Source of the DNA: an uncultured Alphaproteobacteria bacterium
GTDB taxonomy: Bacteria > Pseudomonadota > Alphaproteobacteria > HIMB59 > GCA-002718135
Reading direction: 5' to 3'
DNA: 64,000 nucleotides
NCBI GenBank assembly: GCA_902623545.1
Contig: CACNUI010000003.1
Location: forward strand, 36,436-100,435
Below the pieces are notes generated by a model. That model did no database searches and had not been told where the DNA came from. It was given only the letters and a program-made list of their open reading frames with translations. How positions within the stretch are numbered: position 1 is the first letter of the stretch; each line of letters begins with the position of its first letter. Shown here in pieces: positions 17,013 to 54,746 of this stretch. The position numbers and the translations under genes are program-made.

Positions 17013-18075
17013 TACTCAATTTACAAATATATTAGATAAATATAATAAAATTGAAAACTCATTGAATACTATGGATAATTCAAATTCAGAAAATTTGATA
17101 AAACTAAATAGGGAATATGCAGAATTAAAACCAATAGTTGATAAAATAGAAGAATATAGAAAAGAGCAGCAAGAAATATTAAACCTTGGTGAATTAATTA
17201 AAGACTCTGATCAAGAAATAATTAAAATTGCTGAAAAAGAGTTAATTGAAAAAAAGAATATAATAAAATTACTTGAGAACGAACTATTACGTTTATTATT
17301 ACCCAAAGATTTAAATGATTCAAAAAATTCAATCTTAGAAATAAGAGCTGGTACAGGTGGAGATGAAGCATCTTTATTTGCATCGGATTTATTATCAATG
17401 TATCAAAAGTATGCCGATCTAAATTCATGGAATTTTGAAATACTATCAATATCGGAAACTGGCTTAAAGGGTGTTAAGGAAGTTATATGTAATATATCTG
17501 GCAACAATGTATTTGCAAAGCTTAAATATGAATCTGGAGTACACCGAGTTCAAAGAATTCCAACAACTGAGAGTAATGGCAGAGTTCATACTTCTGCAGC
17601 GACTGTTGCAGTTCTACCAGAGGCAGAAGAAATTGATATAGATATACAGGAAAAAGATTTAAGAATTGATGTATTTAGGTCAAGTGGTCCAGGTGGACAA
17701 TCTGTTAACACAACCGATAGTGCAGTTAGGATTACACATATACCTAGTGGAATAGTAGTGTCTCAACAAGATGAAAAATCACAACACAAAAATAAAGCTA
17801 AAGCTATGAAAATTTTAAGATCAAGATTATTAGATAATGAAATTCAATTAAAAAATAAAGAAAGATCTGAAAATAGAAAAACACAAGTTGGCTCAGGTGA
17901 TAGATCAGAAAGAATTAGAACTTATAATTTTCCACAAGGAAGAGTATCCGATCATAGAATTAATTTAACTCTTTATAATTTATCTGAAATTTTGGCTGGA
18001 AAAATTGAAGACTTAATTAATCCATTAATAGCTGAGGAAGAAAGTAAAAAACTTGCAGATATGCAAAATGAATAA
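16999..18075 (+). CDS. prfA: Peptide chain release factor 1
   Basis: 358 aa with the GGQ motif ([16 protein letters not shown]) and the RF1-type recognition loop [15 protein letters not shown]. Overlaps the hisS end by 14 nt. Confidence 0.95.
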
Positions 18076-18898
18076 CATTATAAAAAGTAGCCTTCTTGAA
18101 TTAAAAAAAAAAAATTTTTTAAATCCTGAGCTTGACTTGAAATTACTTCTTCAAGAAGCTTCATATAAAAAAAAAGAAATAATATTAAGTAATTTAAATA
18201 TTGATGACATTGACATTAATTATTTTAATTTATTAATTTCAAAAAGATTAAATAGGGAGCCAGTATCCAAAATTCTCAAAAGAAAATATTTTTGGAAAAA
18301 TCAATTTTTTGTTAATTCTGATGTATTAGACCCTAGGCCAGAATCAGAATTGATAATTGAAGAAGTATTGAAAAACATAAATGACAGAGATAAGAGTATG
18401 AAAATATTAGATGTAGGTACAGGATCTGGCTGTTTGGCAATTTCATTAGCAAAAGAATTAAAAAATTCCAAAGTTACAGCTATCGATGTTTCACAAAAAG
18501 CTTTGGCAGTGGCCAAAAAAAACGTGAAGCTACATAATATGGGCAATCAAATAGAAATAAAAAATAGGAAAATAGAAAATATAAAAAATAAATTTGATAT
18601 TATTGTTTCTAATCCACCATATATAAATGAAAATGAATATAGAAACCTACAAGTAGAAATTAGAAATTTTGAACCAAAGGTTGCATTGCTGGGTGGGGAA
18701 GATGGATTAAAATTCTATAGATTATTTGCAGAAAATGTTGAAGGAATAATGAATAAAAACTCAATATTTATTTGTGAAATTGGTAGTAGTCAGTTAAATT
18801 CATGTAAATCAATCTTTAGTAAAACAAACTTAATTTTAAAAAAAATATCAAAGGATTTACAAAATATTGACAGAACACTGACATTTTTAAAGATATGA
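18068..18898 (+). CDS. prmC: Release factor glutamine N5-methyltransferase
   Basis: Motifs [13 protein letters not shown] and VSNPPYI. I prefer ATG 18068 (MNNIIKSS) over the track TTG at 18053. Confidence 0.9.
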
Positions 18899-21722: not shown

Positions 21723-21797
21723 GGGTGTGTAGCTCAGCGGTAGAGCACTGCCTCGACACGGCAGTGGTCACAGGTTCAATCCCTGTCACACCCACCA
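21723..21797 (+). tRNA. tRNA-Val (anticodon GAC), CCA encoded
   Basis: Hand-folded cloverleaf. Acceptor GGGTGTG/CACACCC, D arm GCTC-AGCGGTA-GAGC, anticodon arm CTGCC-TCGACAC-GGCAG, T arm ACAGG-TTCAATC-CCTGT, then ACCA. 75 nt. Confidence 0.92.
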
Positions 21798-32311: not shown

Positions 32312-33464
32312 ACTTAACTATAAGATTATAAAATTCTAAAAAAAGATAATGACTATCATGGGGACCAGGTGAGGCTTCTGGATGATACTGAACACTAAAT
32401 ACAGGCTGAGTTTTATGTTTAAAGCCTTCATTAGTTCCATCAAATAAAGAAATATGTGTTTCAATGATATCTTTTGAAAAAGATTCTCTATCAACTTCAA
32501 AACCATGATTTTGAGAAGTTATTTCAACAAAACTAGTTAAGAGGTTCTTAACAGGATGATTTGAACCTCTATGACCCTGAAACATTTTTTTTGTTTTAGC
32601 ACCTAAAGCCAAGCTTAATATTTGATGTCCTAAACATATTCCAAAAATTGGTATTTCTTTATCAATTAATTTTTTTAATGTATTAATTATATTTGTACCA
32701 GTTGCAAAAGGATCGCCAGGACCATTAGATAAAAATATTCCATCAGGTTTAGTTTTAATAATATCCTCATAACTACTTGATAAATTTAATACTGTAGGAT
32801 TTAGATTATATTCATGCAAATTTCTTAAAATATTATGTTTTATTCCAAAGTCTAAACAAGTTACATTAAATTTTTTTTTGGATCCATTTACACTCTTTTT
32901 ACTCCAAGTATTTTCTGCCCAATTGTAACCAATATTTGTTGAAACAACTTTTGCTAAATCTAAATTTTCTAAACCAGACCAATTAGCTATTTCATGATGG
33001 AATTTATTAAGTGATTCTTTATTAGTTCCAAAATTTATTAATGCAGCTTTCATTGCACCTTTATTTGCCAGTATTTTTGTTAAATATCTCGTATCTACAC
33101 CATACAGACATGGTATGTTGTTTTTTATGAAAAATGAATTAAGATCTTCTTCAGCTCTCCAATTTGAATAAAAATTATTTGGCTGATTAATTATACAGCC
33201 ATCAGCATAAATTTGACTTGATTCTTGATCTTCTGAGTTAGTACCCACTATTCCAATATGTGGAAAAGTAAATGTAATGATTTGTTTTGTATAAGAGGGG
33301 TCTGTTAAAGCTTCTTGGTAACCTGTTTGGGATGTATTGAAGCAAAGTTCACCTATAACAGCTTTTTTGACACCAAGACCATATCCTAGCAAAACTTCAC
33401 CATTTTCTAATACCAATGCGGCGCTTTTATTTGTGGGAAAATTAATTTTTTTTAAGCTTTCCAT
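32295..33464 (-). CDS. carA: Carbamoyl-phosphate synthase small (glutaminase) subunit
   Basis: 389 aa with the catalytic-Cys motif GICLGHQ and [13 protein letters not shown]. Confidence 0.96.
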
Positions 33465-33587
33465 TATTTTTGTTTAAGCAAAATGATATTTACTAGGCAT
33501 TTATACTTATCTAGTCAAGGATTAGTTGAAAATAATAAGAAGAATTATATTAATATAATAATTATAAAAATTTATAACTAGGAGTAA

Positions 33588-34049
33588 ATGAGCCAGATGA
33601 ATTTAATAGATAAAATAGATGAAAAATATAAAAATTCGATTAAAGAAAAAGACAGTAATTCAATAAATACTTTAAGACTTATTAGAAGTGCAATAAAGGA
33701 TAAGGAAATTTCTCTTAGGGGAAAACAGGTAAATATTACAGACAATGATGTACTATTATTACTTCAAAATCTAATAAAGCAGAGACATGATTCAATAGAA
33801 GCTTTTAAGAAAGCGAATCGAGACGACTTAATTGAAAAGGAGAAAGCAGAAATTAATGTTATAGAAAGATTTTTGCCTGAGCAAAAAAATGAAAAAGAGA
33901 CTGAAGAAATTATAAAAGAAATAATTAAAGAAAATAATCTCTCTACAATAAAAGATATGGGTAAAGTAATGAATATTATTAAATCAAAATATACAGGAGT
34001 CATTGATATGGGAGTAGCAGGCAAAATTGCTAAGAGTAACTTAGGTTAA
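33588..34049 (+). CDS. GatB/YqeY domain protein
   Basis: 153 aa with LRLIRSAIKDKEI and ERFLPEQ motifs. GGAG lies upstream of the ATG. Confidence 0.85.
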   Translation: MSQMNLIDKIDEKYKNSIKEKDSNSINTLRLIRSAIKDKEISLRGKQVNITDNDVLLLLQNLIKQRHDSIEAFKKANRDDLIEKEKAEINVIERFLPEQKNEKETEEIIKEIIKENNLSTIKDMGKVMNIIKSKYTGVIDMGVAGKIAKSNLG

Positions 34050-34051
34050 GC

Positions 34052-35788
34052 ATGTCATTTTCGAAAAATGATCTTGAAATTATTAAATCTAAGATTTTAC
34101 TTTCAGACGAGCTTCGTAAAAAAGTAAATGTAATTAAAAAAGGTAACGATTATTGGTGTTGTTGTCCTTTTCATGAGGAAAAAACTCCATCATGCAAAAT
34201 TAATGATGATTTTGGCTCATACTATTGTTTTGGATGTGGAGCGAAAGGTGATATCTTTACAATATATACTGAATTATACAACTATACTTTTCCAGATGCA
34301 GTTAAAGAATTAGCTCAAAAAGTTGGTATCAAATTAACTGAAGATAACTTTAAGCAAAATAAAAAAAATGAAAATATTTTCAGAATTCTTGAAATTTCAA
34401 CAAATTGGTTTCAAACTAACCTTCAAAATAACGAAAATTGCAAATTATATTTAAAAAAGAGATTAATTTCAGAAAAAACAATTAATGATTTTAAAATTGG
34501 ATATTCATTTAATTCAAAATCTTCTCTTTATATGTACTTAAAAGAACAAAATTTTTCTGATGATGATATTATAAAAAGCAATTTAGTAAAAATTGATAAT
34601 AATAAAAAAATAAAAGATTTTTTTTACAAAAGATTAATTTTTCCTATAGCAAATGAACAAAACAAAATAGTCGGTTTTGGTGGAAGAGTATTAGATAATT
34701 CTATGCCTAAATATATTAATTCCCCAGAAAGTTTTTTTTTTAAAAAAAGGGGCATTTTATACAATCTCAATCAAGCAAAACAAAATATAAGATCAAAAAA
34801 AAATATTCTTATATGTGAAGGATATATGGACGTTATAAGTTTGTATGAAAAAAATATTAAAACCGCTGTCGCGCCTCTTGGTACTGCTCTAACAGAAACA
34901 CAACTTTCCTTAGCATGGAAATATGCGAACAAACCAACTATAATGTTTGATGGTGATCTATCGGGTGTAAAAGCATCTTATAAAACCGCTTTGATGGCTT
35001 TAAAATATTTATCACCAAATAAATATTTGCAATTTATAAAATTACCACTTAACTATGATCCAGATAGTTATATTAATCAATTTTCATACAATAATTTTAT
35101 TACAATATTAAAAAAACCAATTTCTATAATTGATTTTATTTTTGAACAATCTTCATCTTCAATTGATTTGAGTCAAGCAGATAATAAAATAAGTTATGAT
35201 AAATATATTGATGATTTAATTGAAACAATAGAAAATAAAAAAATTAAGTATTTTTACAAAAATGAATTTAAAAAATTATTTTATAGTAAAATAAAACAGA
35301 AAAATAAGTCTTCAATAAATTCACAAAATAAATTACCTACTCAACCGCTCTTTGAAAAACAAATTGACTCTTTCGTCCTATCATACCTAAATCATATATC
35401 TATAAGGGATGATCTATTTAGCATGTTAAATGAAAGTAATTTATTAGATAAGAGCAAATTAGAATTCCTAAGTTTTTTTCAAAACTCAAAATACAAGACG
35501 TTTCTATTTAAAGACTTAAAAAATTTAAACCTACCAAAATCAATCGAAGAAACACTAAGTAAAATTAATAATAATAGCGTTTTGAGCCTTTTTCCCTACT
35601 CAAAAAATGAAAACAATTCCTTGGAAAGCCTTAATGAAATCAAAGAATCTATCGAAAATTTGAACACAAGACTTTTAAATTTGAAAAAAATAAATAAAAG
35701 CCTAAATGATTTAGACAATAATTTAACATCTTTGACTTGGGAAGATTTGAGGAAAATTACATCTGATTTCCATTTCAGTGATGAATAA
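34052..35788 (+). CDS. dnaG: DNA primase
   Basis: 578 aa with the zinc finger CCCPFHEEKTPSCKIN...CFGCGAKGD and the TOPRIM motifs ICEGYMDVI and FDGDLSG. Confidence 0.95.
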   Translation: MSFSKNDLEIIKSKILLSDELRKKVNVIKKGNDYWCCCPFHEEKTPSCKINDDFGSYYCFGCGAKGDIFTIYTELYNYTFPDAVKELAQKVGIKLTEDNFKQNKKNENIFRILEISTNWFQTNLQNNENCKLYLKKRLISEKTINDFKIGYSFNSKSSLYMYLKEQNFSDDDIIKSNLVKIDNNKKIKDFFYKRLIFPIANEQNKIVGFGGRVLDNSMPKYINSPESFFFKKRGILYNLNQAKQNIRSKKNILICEGYMDVISLYEKNIKTAVAPLGTALTETQLSLAWKYANKPTIMFDGDLSGVKASYKTALMALKYLSPNKYLQFIKLPLNYDPDSYINQFSYNNFITILKKPISIIDFIFEQSSSSIDLSQADNKISYDKYIDDLIETIENKKIKYFYKNEFKKLFYSKIKQKNKSSINSQNKLPTQPLFEKQIDSFVLSYLNHISIRDDLFSMLNESNLLDKSKLEFLSFFQNSKYKTFLFKDLKNLNLPKSIEETLSKINNNSVLSLFPYSKNENNSLESLNEIKESIENLNTRLLNLKKINKSLNDLDNNLTSLTWEDLRKITSDFHFSDE

Positions 35789-35800
35789 TATTTTATTATT

Positions 35801-37952
35801 ATGAAAAAAAAGAAAAAAAAAGTAATCAAAAAAAAGTCTACAAAAAAAGTAACCAAAAAAAAGGTTACAAAAAAAGTAAAAAAAACAAAATCTAAAAAAA
35901 CAGTTTCTAAACCCAAATCCGTTAAGAAAAAAAAGAATTTCTAAAACAACTAAAAAACCAAAAAAAAATGAAGTTAATCAACATAATAAAAATAAATTAA
36001 ATTCAAAACCTAAAAAACAAAAGATTAGTTTTGACGATAAGCTAAAAGAATTTTTTGAAAAATTAATTAATAAAAATAAAATTGACGGTATTTATACTCA
36101 AAAAATAATTGAAAAAGCTATTCCAAAAAAATTCAGAGAACCTGAAAATATTAAAAAATTTAAAGACTTAATCATAGCTAGTAATATAAAAATTTATTCT
36201 GAAGATGAAGCAAAAGAAATTATAAAAAATAACAAATCCGAAAACTTAAAATCAGAAGATAATACAGATGAAGATGGAAAAAAACAGACTGGAAAAACTG
36301 ATGATCCAGTAAGATTATATTTGAGAGATATGGGTGCAGTTGAACTCTTAAGTAGAGAAGGTGAAATAGCAATTGCTAAAAGAATAGAGGCTGGTAGGGA
36401 AAAAATGATAGGCGCAATATGTGAAAGTCCTATGACAATAAGATCCATTATTAATTGGAAAGATTCTATTAAAGATGGAACGATGCTTTTAAGAGATATA
36501 GTTGATTTGGAAGCTACCTACGATATGTCTGATATTTCTGATAATAAATTAGAGGACACTTTTAAATTAATAGAAAATGCAGATAGTAAAGAAAATGAAA
36601 AGAAAGACGATATTAATGCAAAGAAAGAGGAATCTGAAAATGATCCTAATTCATCACAGGAAGATGATGAAGATGAAGGACTTAATGTTTCACTTGCAGC
36701 AATGGAAGAAAAACTTAAACCAAAAGTATTAAATGACTTTAATGAAATAACAAAGCTATTTAAAAAACTTCAAAAATCAAGTTTAGAACTAATTAATTCT
36801 GATAAAAAAAATGAAAAAAATTTTATAAATTTAGAAAAAAAATATAAAAAAATTCAAAAAGAAATGATTTCAGCAATGAAAGCAGTTCATTTTAATTCTT
36901 CTACGATTGAAGCATTAATGGAAGCGTTATATGAATTGAATAAAAAACTCTTACTTAGAGAAGGTAAAATGCTTAGAATGGCTACAAATTCTGGAGTTAA
37001 AAGAGAGGATTTCATTGAACAATATTTAAATTTTAATTTTGAAAAAAACTGGATACAAAACTTATTATCAACAAATAATAAGAATTGGGAAAAATTTATT
37101 AATAGAAATCATTTAGAAATTAATAAGTTAATTGATGAAATTAAGGAAATTCAGGAAGCATCTGAATTGCCATTAAAAGAATTTAGAAGAATAGTAAGTA
37201 CTGTTCAGCAAGGTGAAAGATCAGCAAATAGAGCTAAAAAAGAAATGATAGAGTCAAACTTGAGGTTAGTAATTTCTATAGCAAAAAAATATACTAATAG
37301 AGGTTTACAATTTTTAGATCTTATACAAGAGGGTAATATTGGATTAATGAAAGCTGTAGACAAATTTGAATATAGAAGAGGTTACAAATTTTCAACGTAT
37401 GCAACCTGGTGGATTAGACAGGCAATTACAAGATCCATTGCAGATCAAGCAAGAACTATAAGAATTCCAGTACATATGATAGAAACAATTAATAAAATCG
37501 TAAGAACTACTAGACAAATTATGTCTGAGATTGGAAGAGAGCCAACTCCTAATGAGTTAGCAGATCGTTTACATATGCCGTTAGATAAAGTAAAAAAAGT
37601 TTTAAAAATAGCAAAAGAACCAATAAGTTTGGAAACGCCAGTAGGTGATGAGGAAGATAGTTCACTCGGGGACTTTATAGAGGATAAAAATGCACTCATT
37701 CCTATAGATGCAGCTGTAAAGAGCTCTCTTAGGGATACAACAACACGAATATTATCATCTCTAACTCCAAGAGAAGAGAGAGTTTTAAGAATGAGGTTTG
37801 GTATTGGAATGAATAGTGATCACACTTTAGAAGAAGTTGGGCAGCAATTTAGTGTTACTAGAGAAAGAATACGACAGATTGAGGCTAAAGCTTTAAGAAA
37901 ATTAAAACACCCAACAAGAGCAAGAAAACTAAAAACATTTTTAGATGAATAA
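35801..37952 (+). CDS. rpoD: RNA polymerase sigma-70 factor RpoD; as sequenced, needs a +1 frame change in an A-run between 35880 and 35941 (the uninterrupted part is the track ORF 36321..37952)
   Basis: Regions 1.2-4.2 are unmistakable: [78 protein letters not shown]. The same frame is open back to 35880 and encodes a region-1.1-like sequence, but has no ATG, GTG or TTG before 36321. ATG 35801 is offset by one frame and stops at 35942-44. See finding. Confidence 0.7.
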
Positions 37953-38780
37953 ATGGAGCTAACACTCCTAGGTACAGGGTGTCCTAAAGTAGATCATAAA
38001 AGATTTGGACCATCTAACTTAATTACTTCAAAGCAAGCTAAAATATTAATAGATTGTGGATCAGGTGTTACCCAAAGATTAGATGAAGCTAAAGTTTCAA
38101 CTGCTGACATAGATGCTTTATTCTTAACACATCTTCATTCAGATCATGTAGTAGATTTATATCAGCTTATTATCTCGTCATGGCATTCATATAGAATCAA
38201 ACCTTGGAAAATATTTGGACCAAAAGGAACAAAAAAATTTGTTACAAACATTATGAAGGCTTGGCAAGATGAGAGAAATTTAAGAATAAAATATGAATCA
38301 AGATCTTCAACAAAAGCATTTAAAACCACAATTAAAGAATTTAAAAATTTAGGAAAAGTAAAAATTAAAGATATAAATATTGAATATTTTGAAGTAGATC
38401 ACAGACCAGTAAAATATGCCTATGGTTTTAATTTCTTGTATAAAAGAAAAAAACTAACAATAAGTGGTGATACAAAACCATGTGAAAACTTAATAAAATA
38501 TGCACAAAATGCTGATGTTTTACTTCATGAAGTTTTTATTGATGGCGAATTCAAAGAAACAAACAAAATGCGAACTAAAAAAACATTACACAATGTAAGA
38601 AATTATCACACACCTTCAACGATAGTTGGAAAGGTTGCTAAATTAACTAAAGCTAAAAAATTAATTTTAACTCATTTAGTTCCCACAAAGTTTGATGAAA
38701 AAAAATTAAAAAAAACAGTTAAAATAGACTTTGGAAAAAATCCAATTATTGGTAAAGATCTTTTGAAAATTAGAATTTAG
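37953..38780 (+). CDS. MBL-fold metallo-hydrolase (RNase Z/BN-like)
   Basis: 275 aa with LIDCGSG and the zinc motif HLHSDH. Starts immediately after the rpoD stop. Confidence 0.8.
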   Translation: MELTLLGTGCPKVDHKRFGPSNLITSKQAKILIDCGSGVTQRLDEAKVSTADIDALFLTHLHSDHVVDLYQLIISSWHSYRIKPWKIFGPKGTKKFVTNIMKAWQDERNLRIKYESRSSTKAFKTTIKEFKNLGKVKIKDINIEYFEVDHRPVKYAYGFNFLYKRKKLTISGDTKPCENLIKYAQNADVLLHEVFIDGEFKETNKMRTKKTLHNVRNYHTPSTIVGKVAKLTKAKKLILTHLVPTKFDEKKLKKTVKIDFGKNPIIGKDLLKIRI

Positions 38781-38790
38781 TATTATTTAA

Positions 38791-38819
38791 TTGAAAGTTG
38801 TAACATAGAGATGTATTAG
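38791..38819 (+). promoter_or_regulatory. Candidate promoter for tRNA(CAT): TTGAAA-17 nt-TATTAG
   Basis: TTGAAA at 38791-96, a 17-nt spacer and TATTAG at 38814-19, ending 9 nt before the tRNA 5' end. AT-rich background, so specificity is low. Confidence 0.3.
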
Positions 38820-38828
38820 CTGATTTTA

Positions 38829-38905
38829 GGGCTCTTAGCTCAGTTGGTTAGAGCGCCCCGCTCATAACGGGGTGGTCCGGGGTTCAAGTCCCTGAGGGCC
38901 CACCA
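38829..38905 (+). tRNA. tRNA with anticodon CAT: elongator tRNA-Met or lysidine-modified tRNA-Ile2 (not an initiator); CCA encoded
   Basis: Hand-folded cloverleaf. Acceptor GGGCTCT/AGGGCCC, D arm GCTC-AGTTGGTTA-GAGC, anticodon arm CCCCG-CTCATAA-CGGGG, variable TGGTC, T arm CGGGG-TTCAAGT-CCCTG. The G1-C72 pair and the lack of the GGG/CCC anticodon-stem signature argue against tRNA-fMet. 77 nt. Confidence 0.9.
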
Positions 38906-48550: not shown

Positions 48551-53593
<5,043 letters not shown>

Positions 53594-54376: not shown

Positions 54377-54396
54377 AAAAATTTAAAAAGCATAAT

Positions 54397-54730
54397 GATG
54401 GTGCGATGATCGCTTGAGTAATCAAGAGGAAAGTCCGGGCTCCACTGGAAAAAAAACCAGGTAACTCCTGGCAGGTGTAAGCTTAGGGAAAGTGCAACAG
54501 AAAATATACCGCCTAAAAAGGTAAGGGTGAAATGGTAAGGTAAGAGCTTACCGCTTTTTTGGTAACAAAAAAGGCTTTGCAAACCCTTTTTGGAGCAAGG
54601 TCAAATAGGAATGGTAATCAGTTCCAGCTGGGCCATTCGGGTAGACTGCTTGAAACAAATGGTGACATTTGTTCTAGATTAATGATCATCAATTTTTTAT
54701 TAAATTACAGAACCCGGCTTATGCACCATC
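54397..54730 (+). ncRNA. rnpB: RNase P RNA, bacterial type A
   Basis: Conserved blocks read directly: GAGGAAAGTCCGGGCTCC (P4 5' strand), AGGGAAAGTGCAACAGAAA, GGTAAGGGTGAAA and ACAGAACCCGGCTTA (P4 3' strand). P1 pairs GATGGTGC (54397-404) with GCACCATC (54723-30). Ends are accurate to about +/-5 nt. Confidence 0.93.
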
Positions 54731-54746
54731 TATATTTATTAAGAAC

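Follow-up and report, generated by a model that had tools for sequence, protein, structure and literature searches.

Apparent loss of the rpoD start codon in an AT-rich alphaproteobacterial contig probably reflects one surplus A in an A-run

The gene for the primary sigma factor RpoD, as assembled in the 64,000 nt stretch of DNA that was analysed here (in the following called the window), has no single uninterrupted ORF from a canonical start codon, whereas such an ORF is present in all six near-identical contigs that were found. The cause is a single-base difference, eight instead of seven As in one run, which is private to this assembly, the gene being intact in the relatives. We infer, with a probability of about 0.8, that the extra A is a sequencing or assembly artefact and not part of the genome of the organism. 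Judged by its sequence, the gene is best read as a 716 aa primary sigma factor RpoD that starts with ATG 35801. The organism would then possess an ordinary SAR11 (Pelagibacteraceae) rpoD of 716 aa, beginning at this ATG with a tail of approximately 75 residues, followed by regions 1.1 and 1.2, the non-essential region and regions 2–4. The run at 35927–35934 would be one A too long, and this only in the present assembly, leaving a 47 aa ORF and a start-less body. The surplus A would have been introduced during amplification, sequencing or assembly, within the most homopolymer-dense and quasi-repetitive 200 nt of the window, and no special decoding would be involved. The features of the locus are listed in Table 1.

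Table 1. The rpoD locus as assembled, with its two neighbouring genes (positions refer to the window)
Feature	Position	Strand	Remarks
dnaG (DNA primase, 578 aa)	34052..35788	+	Directly 5' of rpoD; intact, with undisturbed T10 and A9 runs; no indel compared with the Tara contigs; homologous gene matched by Pfam Zn_ribbon_DnaG/Toprim
True 5' end of rpoD as proposed here, read as a separate 47 aa ORF	35801..35944	+	ATG 35801, lysine-rich, TAA 35942-44; frame lost at 35927-34
Lesion, A8 run	35927..35934	+	A7 in 6/6 near-identical contigs; one A fewer gives a single 716 aa ORF
rpoD frame 3' of the lesion	35880..37952	+	Open from 35880; first canonical starts TTG 36321 and ATG 36330, both within region 1.2
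Region 1.1-like segment	36048..36269	+	Start-less part of the frame; weak PF03979 match (E = 4.6e-4, 20.5 bits, cut-off 22.5)
Sigma-70 region 1.2	36303..36401	+	PF00140, E = 5.9e-12, residues 168-200 of the repaired protein and of P0001; holds TTG 36321 as well as ATG 36330, the start in the public annotation
Metallo-beta-lactamase-fold gene (275 aa)	37953..38780	+	3' of rpoD; handle for the frame-blind retrieval of contigs

Downstream of its in-frame TAA (35877–79) the rpoD frame opens at 35880, but no ATG, GTG or TTG is found in it before TTG 36321, and the first ATG follows at 36330. Since both of these codons are located inside the Pfam match to region 1.2, neither of them qualifies as the true start. 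The only well-placed start codon is ATG 35801, which follows the dnaG stop codon after a spacer of 12 nt and opens the short lysine-rich ORF in the other frame. Both frames are open together only between 35880 and 35941, and this overlap contains three A-runs, A8 (35878–85), A7 (35894–900) and A8 (35927–34), the last of which is the one that differs from the relatives. This arrangement of frames and A-runs had been described in the initial annotation, made from the letters of the window, including the statement that TTG 36321 is not the real N-terminus, and it was found to be correct in each of these points.

The start-less leader of rpoD measures 441 nt. It is by far the longest among the gene-matching open frames of the window, the runner-up being a leader of 93 nt just 3' of a tRNA, and it is no chance pattern. 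It encodes RpoD sequence, as the NCBIfam RpoD equivalog model NF004208 could be aligned from profile position 4 (to 631). The region 1.1-like segment that the initial annotation had recognised in this part is covered by the same alignment, but its match to the Pfam model of region 1.1 stays below the cut-off (Table 1). In the public annotation of the contig, rpoD starts at ATG 36330 and is 540 aa long; this product matches profile positions 127–631 of NF004208 only and is devoid of region 1.1 and of part of region 1.2. Among approximately 15 billion proteins this fragment has a single occurrence, from this contig only, and the 47 aa peptide of the window has no copy there. For curation this means that the annotated 540 aa RpoD should become the 716 aa protein from 35801.

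Deletion of one A from 35927–34 yields a product of 716 aa, very close to the RpoD of about 715 aa with a poly-lysine tail that the initial annotation had expected from such a change. Over its full length this repaired protein is approximately 99% identical (3–5 substitutions) to P0001 and P0002, which come from Tara Oceans metagenomes and are likewise exactly 716 aa long, and the first 44 residues of the 47 aa ORF are those of P0001. The score of the repaired protein against NF004208 is 813 bits (cut-off 555, profile positions 4–631). PF00140, PF04546, PF04542, PF04539 and PF04545 each score above their cut-offs, showing that regions 1.2, the non-essential region and regions 2, 3 and 4 are present. 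The repaired 716 aa sequence of the window itself was not found in the public protein collection, nor was an independent assembly of an identical strain.

Primary sigma factors are essential, and a second sigma-70 family gene that might compensate was not found in the 64 kb window, where rpoD is the only one. A promoter and terminator scan of 35400–36500 gave no evidence of an internal transcript start, promoter-like sites being fewer than in shuffled sequences. The same scan marked a perfect 6 bp inverted repeat in the tail-coding part, GTAACC-A8-GGTTAC (35849–35868 on the plus strand, approximately 60 nt 5' of the affected run), as terminator-like on the minus strand; there is no evidence that it is of relevance here. 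On the other side of rpoD, the 275 aa gene begins at the base right after the rpoD stop codon and carries a precomputed Pfam match to Anti-Pycsar_Apyc1 (PF23023). The order dnaG, rpoD and metallo-beta-lactamase-fold gene is kept in all related contigs.

Six marine metagenome contigs from six samples (L001, L002, L003, L084, L088 and L089) are 98.2–99.6% identical to the window, and each of them encodes an intact 716 aa RpoD. The run that has eight As in the window has seven in every one of them. L001 to L003 are the contigs of the protein matches, L088 and L089 were reached through cluster members and L084 through a pattern search in which a run length of 6–10 was allowed. An alignment of the 5' region with the rpoD of relatives had been proposed as a check in the initial annotation; when it was made at the DNA level with L001 to L003, the A8/A7 difference at 35927–34 was the sole indel within the gene, and the same is true for L084, L088 and L089. 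In none of the six contigs do the remaining A-runs of the 5' region differ in length from those of the window, except for one run in L084 that is interrupted by a substitution. Over a longer distance (32802–38878), covered by two spanning contigs, 37 of the 38 A/T runs of at least 7 nt are equal in length to those of the window, including the T10 and A9 runs of dnaG.

The only other indel is located in the spacer between dnaG and rpoD (35791; spacer of 12–13 nt), where the window, L001 and L084 have T4 and L002, L003, L088 and L089 have T5. This variant is common to independent contigs and therefore a genuine population variant, unlike the A8. Because five of the six contigs had first been found via an intact protein, which might bias the sample, the retrieval was repeated via the neighbouring 275 aa gene and was thereby blind to the frame of rpoD. 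All four contigs that reach the site in this second search have the intact 716 aa gene (a further one, L096, extends downstream only, and the site is outside its coverage). Such short-read contigs are also not error-free: at 1885–1937 of L003 (identical with L091; TARA_SAMEA6047393 scaffold_11901) a 53 bp segment of dnaG is inverted, splitting the dnaG product into 335 and 253 aa, and this inversion is an assembly artefact in the relative.

What was found is a one-base homopolymer change against the population consensus that is private to one assembly. The explanation put first among three in the initial annotation, an error in homopolymer length, is the one favoured by the A7 run and the intact gene in the six contigs. 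The surroundings of the lesion are also the place in the window with the highest density of A-runs, 10 runs of at least 7 nt being located within 200 nt. A repeat search detected a 27 nt quasi-repeat of the tail and an 18 nt near-repeat that includes the affected run, and nothing else; these repeats suggest a region that is hard to assemble and do not prove an error. There are 107 A/T runs of at least 8 nt in the window, yet rpoD is its only disrupted gene, and one broken gene despite so many runs fits a sporadic error. In a benchmark of single-cell assembly approximately 3 indels per 100 kb were obtained with one workflow (PMC6122165). One indel in 64 kb fits this expected order, provided that the source is a single-cell assembly of the benchmarked kind.

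Some points count against an artefact. No other frameshift was found in the rest of the window, and miscalls of an 8-base run are rare in short-read assemblies. Furthermore, SAR11 genomes are reported to be devoid of mismatch repair, in which case real mutations from A7 to A8 would be relatively frequent in single cells. A real private A8 allele, all its versions taken together, nevertheless appears unlikely to us.

One such version, which we regard as improbable, holds that A8 is a true mutation of this cell or strain and that some full-length sigma-70 is made by an RNA polymerase dropping one A or by a ribosome slipping by +1. The overlap offers the opportunity, because loss of one A at the RNA level from any of its three A7–A8 runs restores the frame, and a +1 slip on AAA AAA AAG, from AAA 35930–32 to 35931–33, gives exactly the wild-type sequence ...SVKKKRISK.... 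The window is AT-rich (26.8% G+C), and AT-rich endosymbionts tolerate poly(A) frameshifts in essential genes, including dnaG and dnaX, by transcriptional slippage (PMC3017870, citing Tamas et al. 2008). However, in those endosymbionts conservation across populations or species is the hallmark of a maintained frameshift (PMC3017870), and here the frameshift is seen in none of the six near-identical contigs and in none of the 120 best homologues. A frameshift rescued by slippage, the second option of the initial annotation, is thereby not supported as a feature of the lineage and would be conceivable as a private allele only. Rescue would moreover require the deletion of 1 nt or the insertion of 2 nt in the RNA, and deletion is the disfavoured direction at A-runs: when slippage at A/T runs was measured over the transcriptomes of E. 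coli and Buchnera, it gave rise to insertions, 80% of them of a single nucleotide, whereas deletions were rarely tied to homopolymer runs, and the frequency of slippage rose exponentially with run length (PMC5574713). A run of 8 nt is short, and with A8, A7 and A8 the overlap stays below the approximately 9 A/T taken here as the minimum for efficient slippage. Even in endosymbionts only about 30% of the transcripts were full length (PMC3017870). At the level of the ribosome, a +1 stimulator was not visible when the sequence was read by eye, as there is neither a stop or rare codon beside the run nor a Shine-Dalgarno-like motif. SAR11 bacteria are free-living and have very large populations, in which an allele that cripples the only primary sigma factor would not be expected to last. 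The stricter claim that A8 is real and that the sole housekeeping sigma factor is made only through slippage of RNA polymerase or ribosome on A-runs is very unlikely. If it were true, frameshift rescue by polymerase infidelity would reach beyond bottlenecked endosymbionts to an ocean bacterium that is free-living and highly abundant.

Another version combines a real A8 with a start at a non-canonical codon, so that RpoD would be made without most of its tail. Two ATT codons, at 35937 and 36024, are in the rpoD frame, the second of them just 5' of region 1.1. The upstream ORF ends at 35942–44 and overlaps ATT 35937, so ribosomes are delivered there and termination-reinitiation is conceivable. 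No relative uses such a start, however; in every one of them region 1.1 shares its frame with the conserved ATG and the tail, and the ATT start considered in the initial annotation is thus not needed. AUU is a poor initiator in bacteria, a Shine-Dalgarno-like sequence is absent, the yield of an essential and abundant protein would fall far below its normal level, and the reading needs a real A8 in the first place. We consider it highly improbable.

A programmed, conserved recoding signal that tunes the dosage of sigma-70 throughout the lineage is barely conceivable. Only the local density of A-runs, the maximum of the window, speaks for it, whereas the ORF is single and uninterrupted in all relatives that were examined, the closest being 99.6% identical in DNA and the most distant approximately 82% identical in protein. 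At the lineage level a conserved or programmed frameshift is ruled out, as the two-frame arrangement occurs neither in the six contigs nor in the 120 homologues.

In the tail-coding part (35801–35970) the lysine codons alternate between AAA and AAG, giving runs of A8, A9, A8, A7, A8, A7, A8, A7, A7/8 and A9, none of them longer than 9. In the window as a whole the numbers of A-runs fall sharply beyond this length (72 of A7, 49 of A8, 19 of A9, 3 of A10 and 1 of A12), a pattern that would agree with selection acting on runs that exceed the RNA:DNA hybrid in length. The two longest homopolymers, A12 (18103–18114) and T11 (52774–52784), are in frame within intact genes: the former encodes the KKK of ...LELKKKNF..., close to the 5' end of the gene at 18068, and the latter the MKKK N-terminus of a minus-strand gene starting at 52787. 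A bacterial class A RNase P RNA (54394–54737, plus strand, 309 bits) fills the one large gap that the ORFs of the window leave, and tRNA genes were found for Val (21723–21797) and Met (38829–38905).

The best 120 homologues are 716–741 aa long and all start with M(A/K)KKK; the sole one with a source name is from Pelagibacteraceae. Lysine makes up 40–53% of the N-terminal tail in all 120, and in the 102 with a locatable boundary the tail extends over 73–96 aa before region 1.1. Its sequence diverges among the homologues but the frame is always kept, and in the repaired protein residue 62 is the first to be covered by the RpoD profile. Since the frame of the tail is kept and the A7 allele has no other start codon 5' of region 1.2, the tail is translated, with its frame under selection. 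These sequence comparisons indicate that the lysine-rich tail is a normal, conserved part of the SAR11 RpoD.

Outside this group the picture is different. A contig search with the repaired protein listed matches mostly from distant Alphaproteobacteria; two SAR11 single-cell genomes (L004 and L005) were among the matches listed. Altogether 79 other rpoD loci were scored, one of which has no region 1.2 motif, so that 78 were counted. Among these matches listed, the lysine-rich N-terminus is missing in 75 of 78, including loci at 35–36% G+C, and the usual acidic start is found instead. The three loci that have it belong to the two SAR11 single-cell genomes and to one Neomarinimicrobiota MAG (L007). 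The latter possesses a still longer tail of AKPK repeats, with 310 aa ahead of region 1.2. The initial annotation had called the basic tail unusual for RpoD, which is appropriate for RpoD in general but not within SAR11. A literature search found no published description of the SAR11 RpoD tail.

Similar extensions are known from other primary sigma factors. Streptomyces HrdB and the RpoD of Bordetella pertussis likewise carry a lysine-rich, low-complexity N-terminal extension before region 1.1 (PMC5714199, PMC9205884), and these lysine-repeat extensions have been described as typical of GC-rich genomes (PMC5714199). In contrast, the SAR11 tail comes from a genome of approximately 27–29% G+C and is encoded by dense A7–A9 runs. 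By analogy with HrdB (PMC9205884), a putative role of the SAR11 tail would be to bind DNA or to modulate the holoenzyme. Encoded in A7–A9 runs, it would expose the main sigma factor of the cell to slippage errors. The conserved tail is of modest biological interest and might merit a separate follow-up.

With regard to known slippage systems, the closest parallel is provided by the poly(A) frameshifts of Buchnera and Blochmannia (Tamas et al. 2008; PMC3017870), which likewise affect A-runs of otherwise undegraded, essential information-processing genes in AT-rich genomes. The endosymbiont frameshifts are conserved across populations or species and affect longer tracts, such as one of 11 As (PMC3017870), whereas the run described here has 8 As, is private, belongs to a free-living host and would need a deletion. 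Thus, rpoD of the window resembles an endosymbiont poly(A) frameshift but differs from it in conservation and tract length, and it agrees with an artefact in every respect that could be tested. Programmed transcriptional slippage, as in Thermus dnaX (A9), IS elements and the type III secretion genes of Shigella (PMC5009743), also takes place on a slippery A-run in the overlap of two frames. Unlike these cases, the two-frame arrangement is not conserved here and there is no alternative functional product, the upstream product being a 47 aa fragment of the tail. For AT-rich draft genomes it follows that essential genes without a start codon should first be compared with population contigs, and only then should recoding be considered. 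The locus is most similar to the homopolymer indel errors of draft genomes, single-cell or metagenome-assembled, in which a private one-base change of an A-run likewise breaks a conserved essential gene; here, too, the other run lengths agree with those of the population contigs, and it is from this comparison that we infer the error itself.
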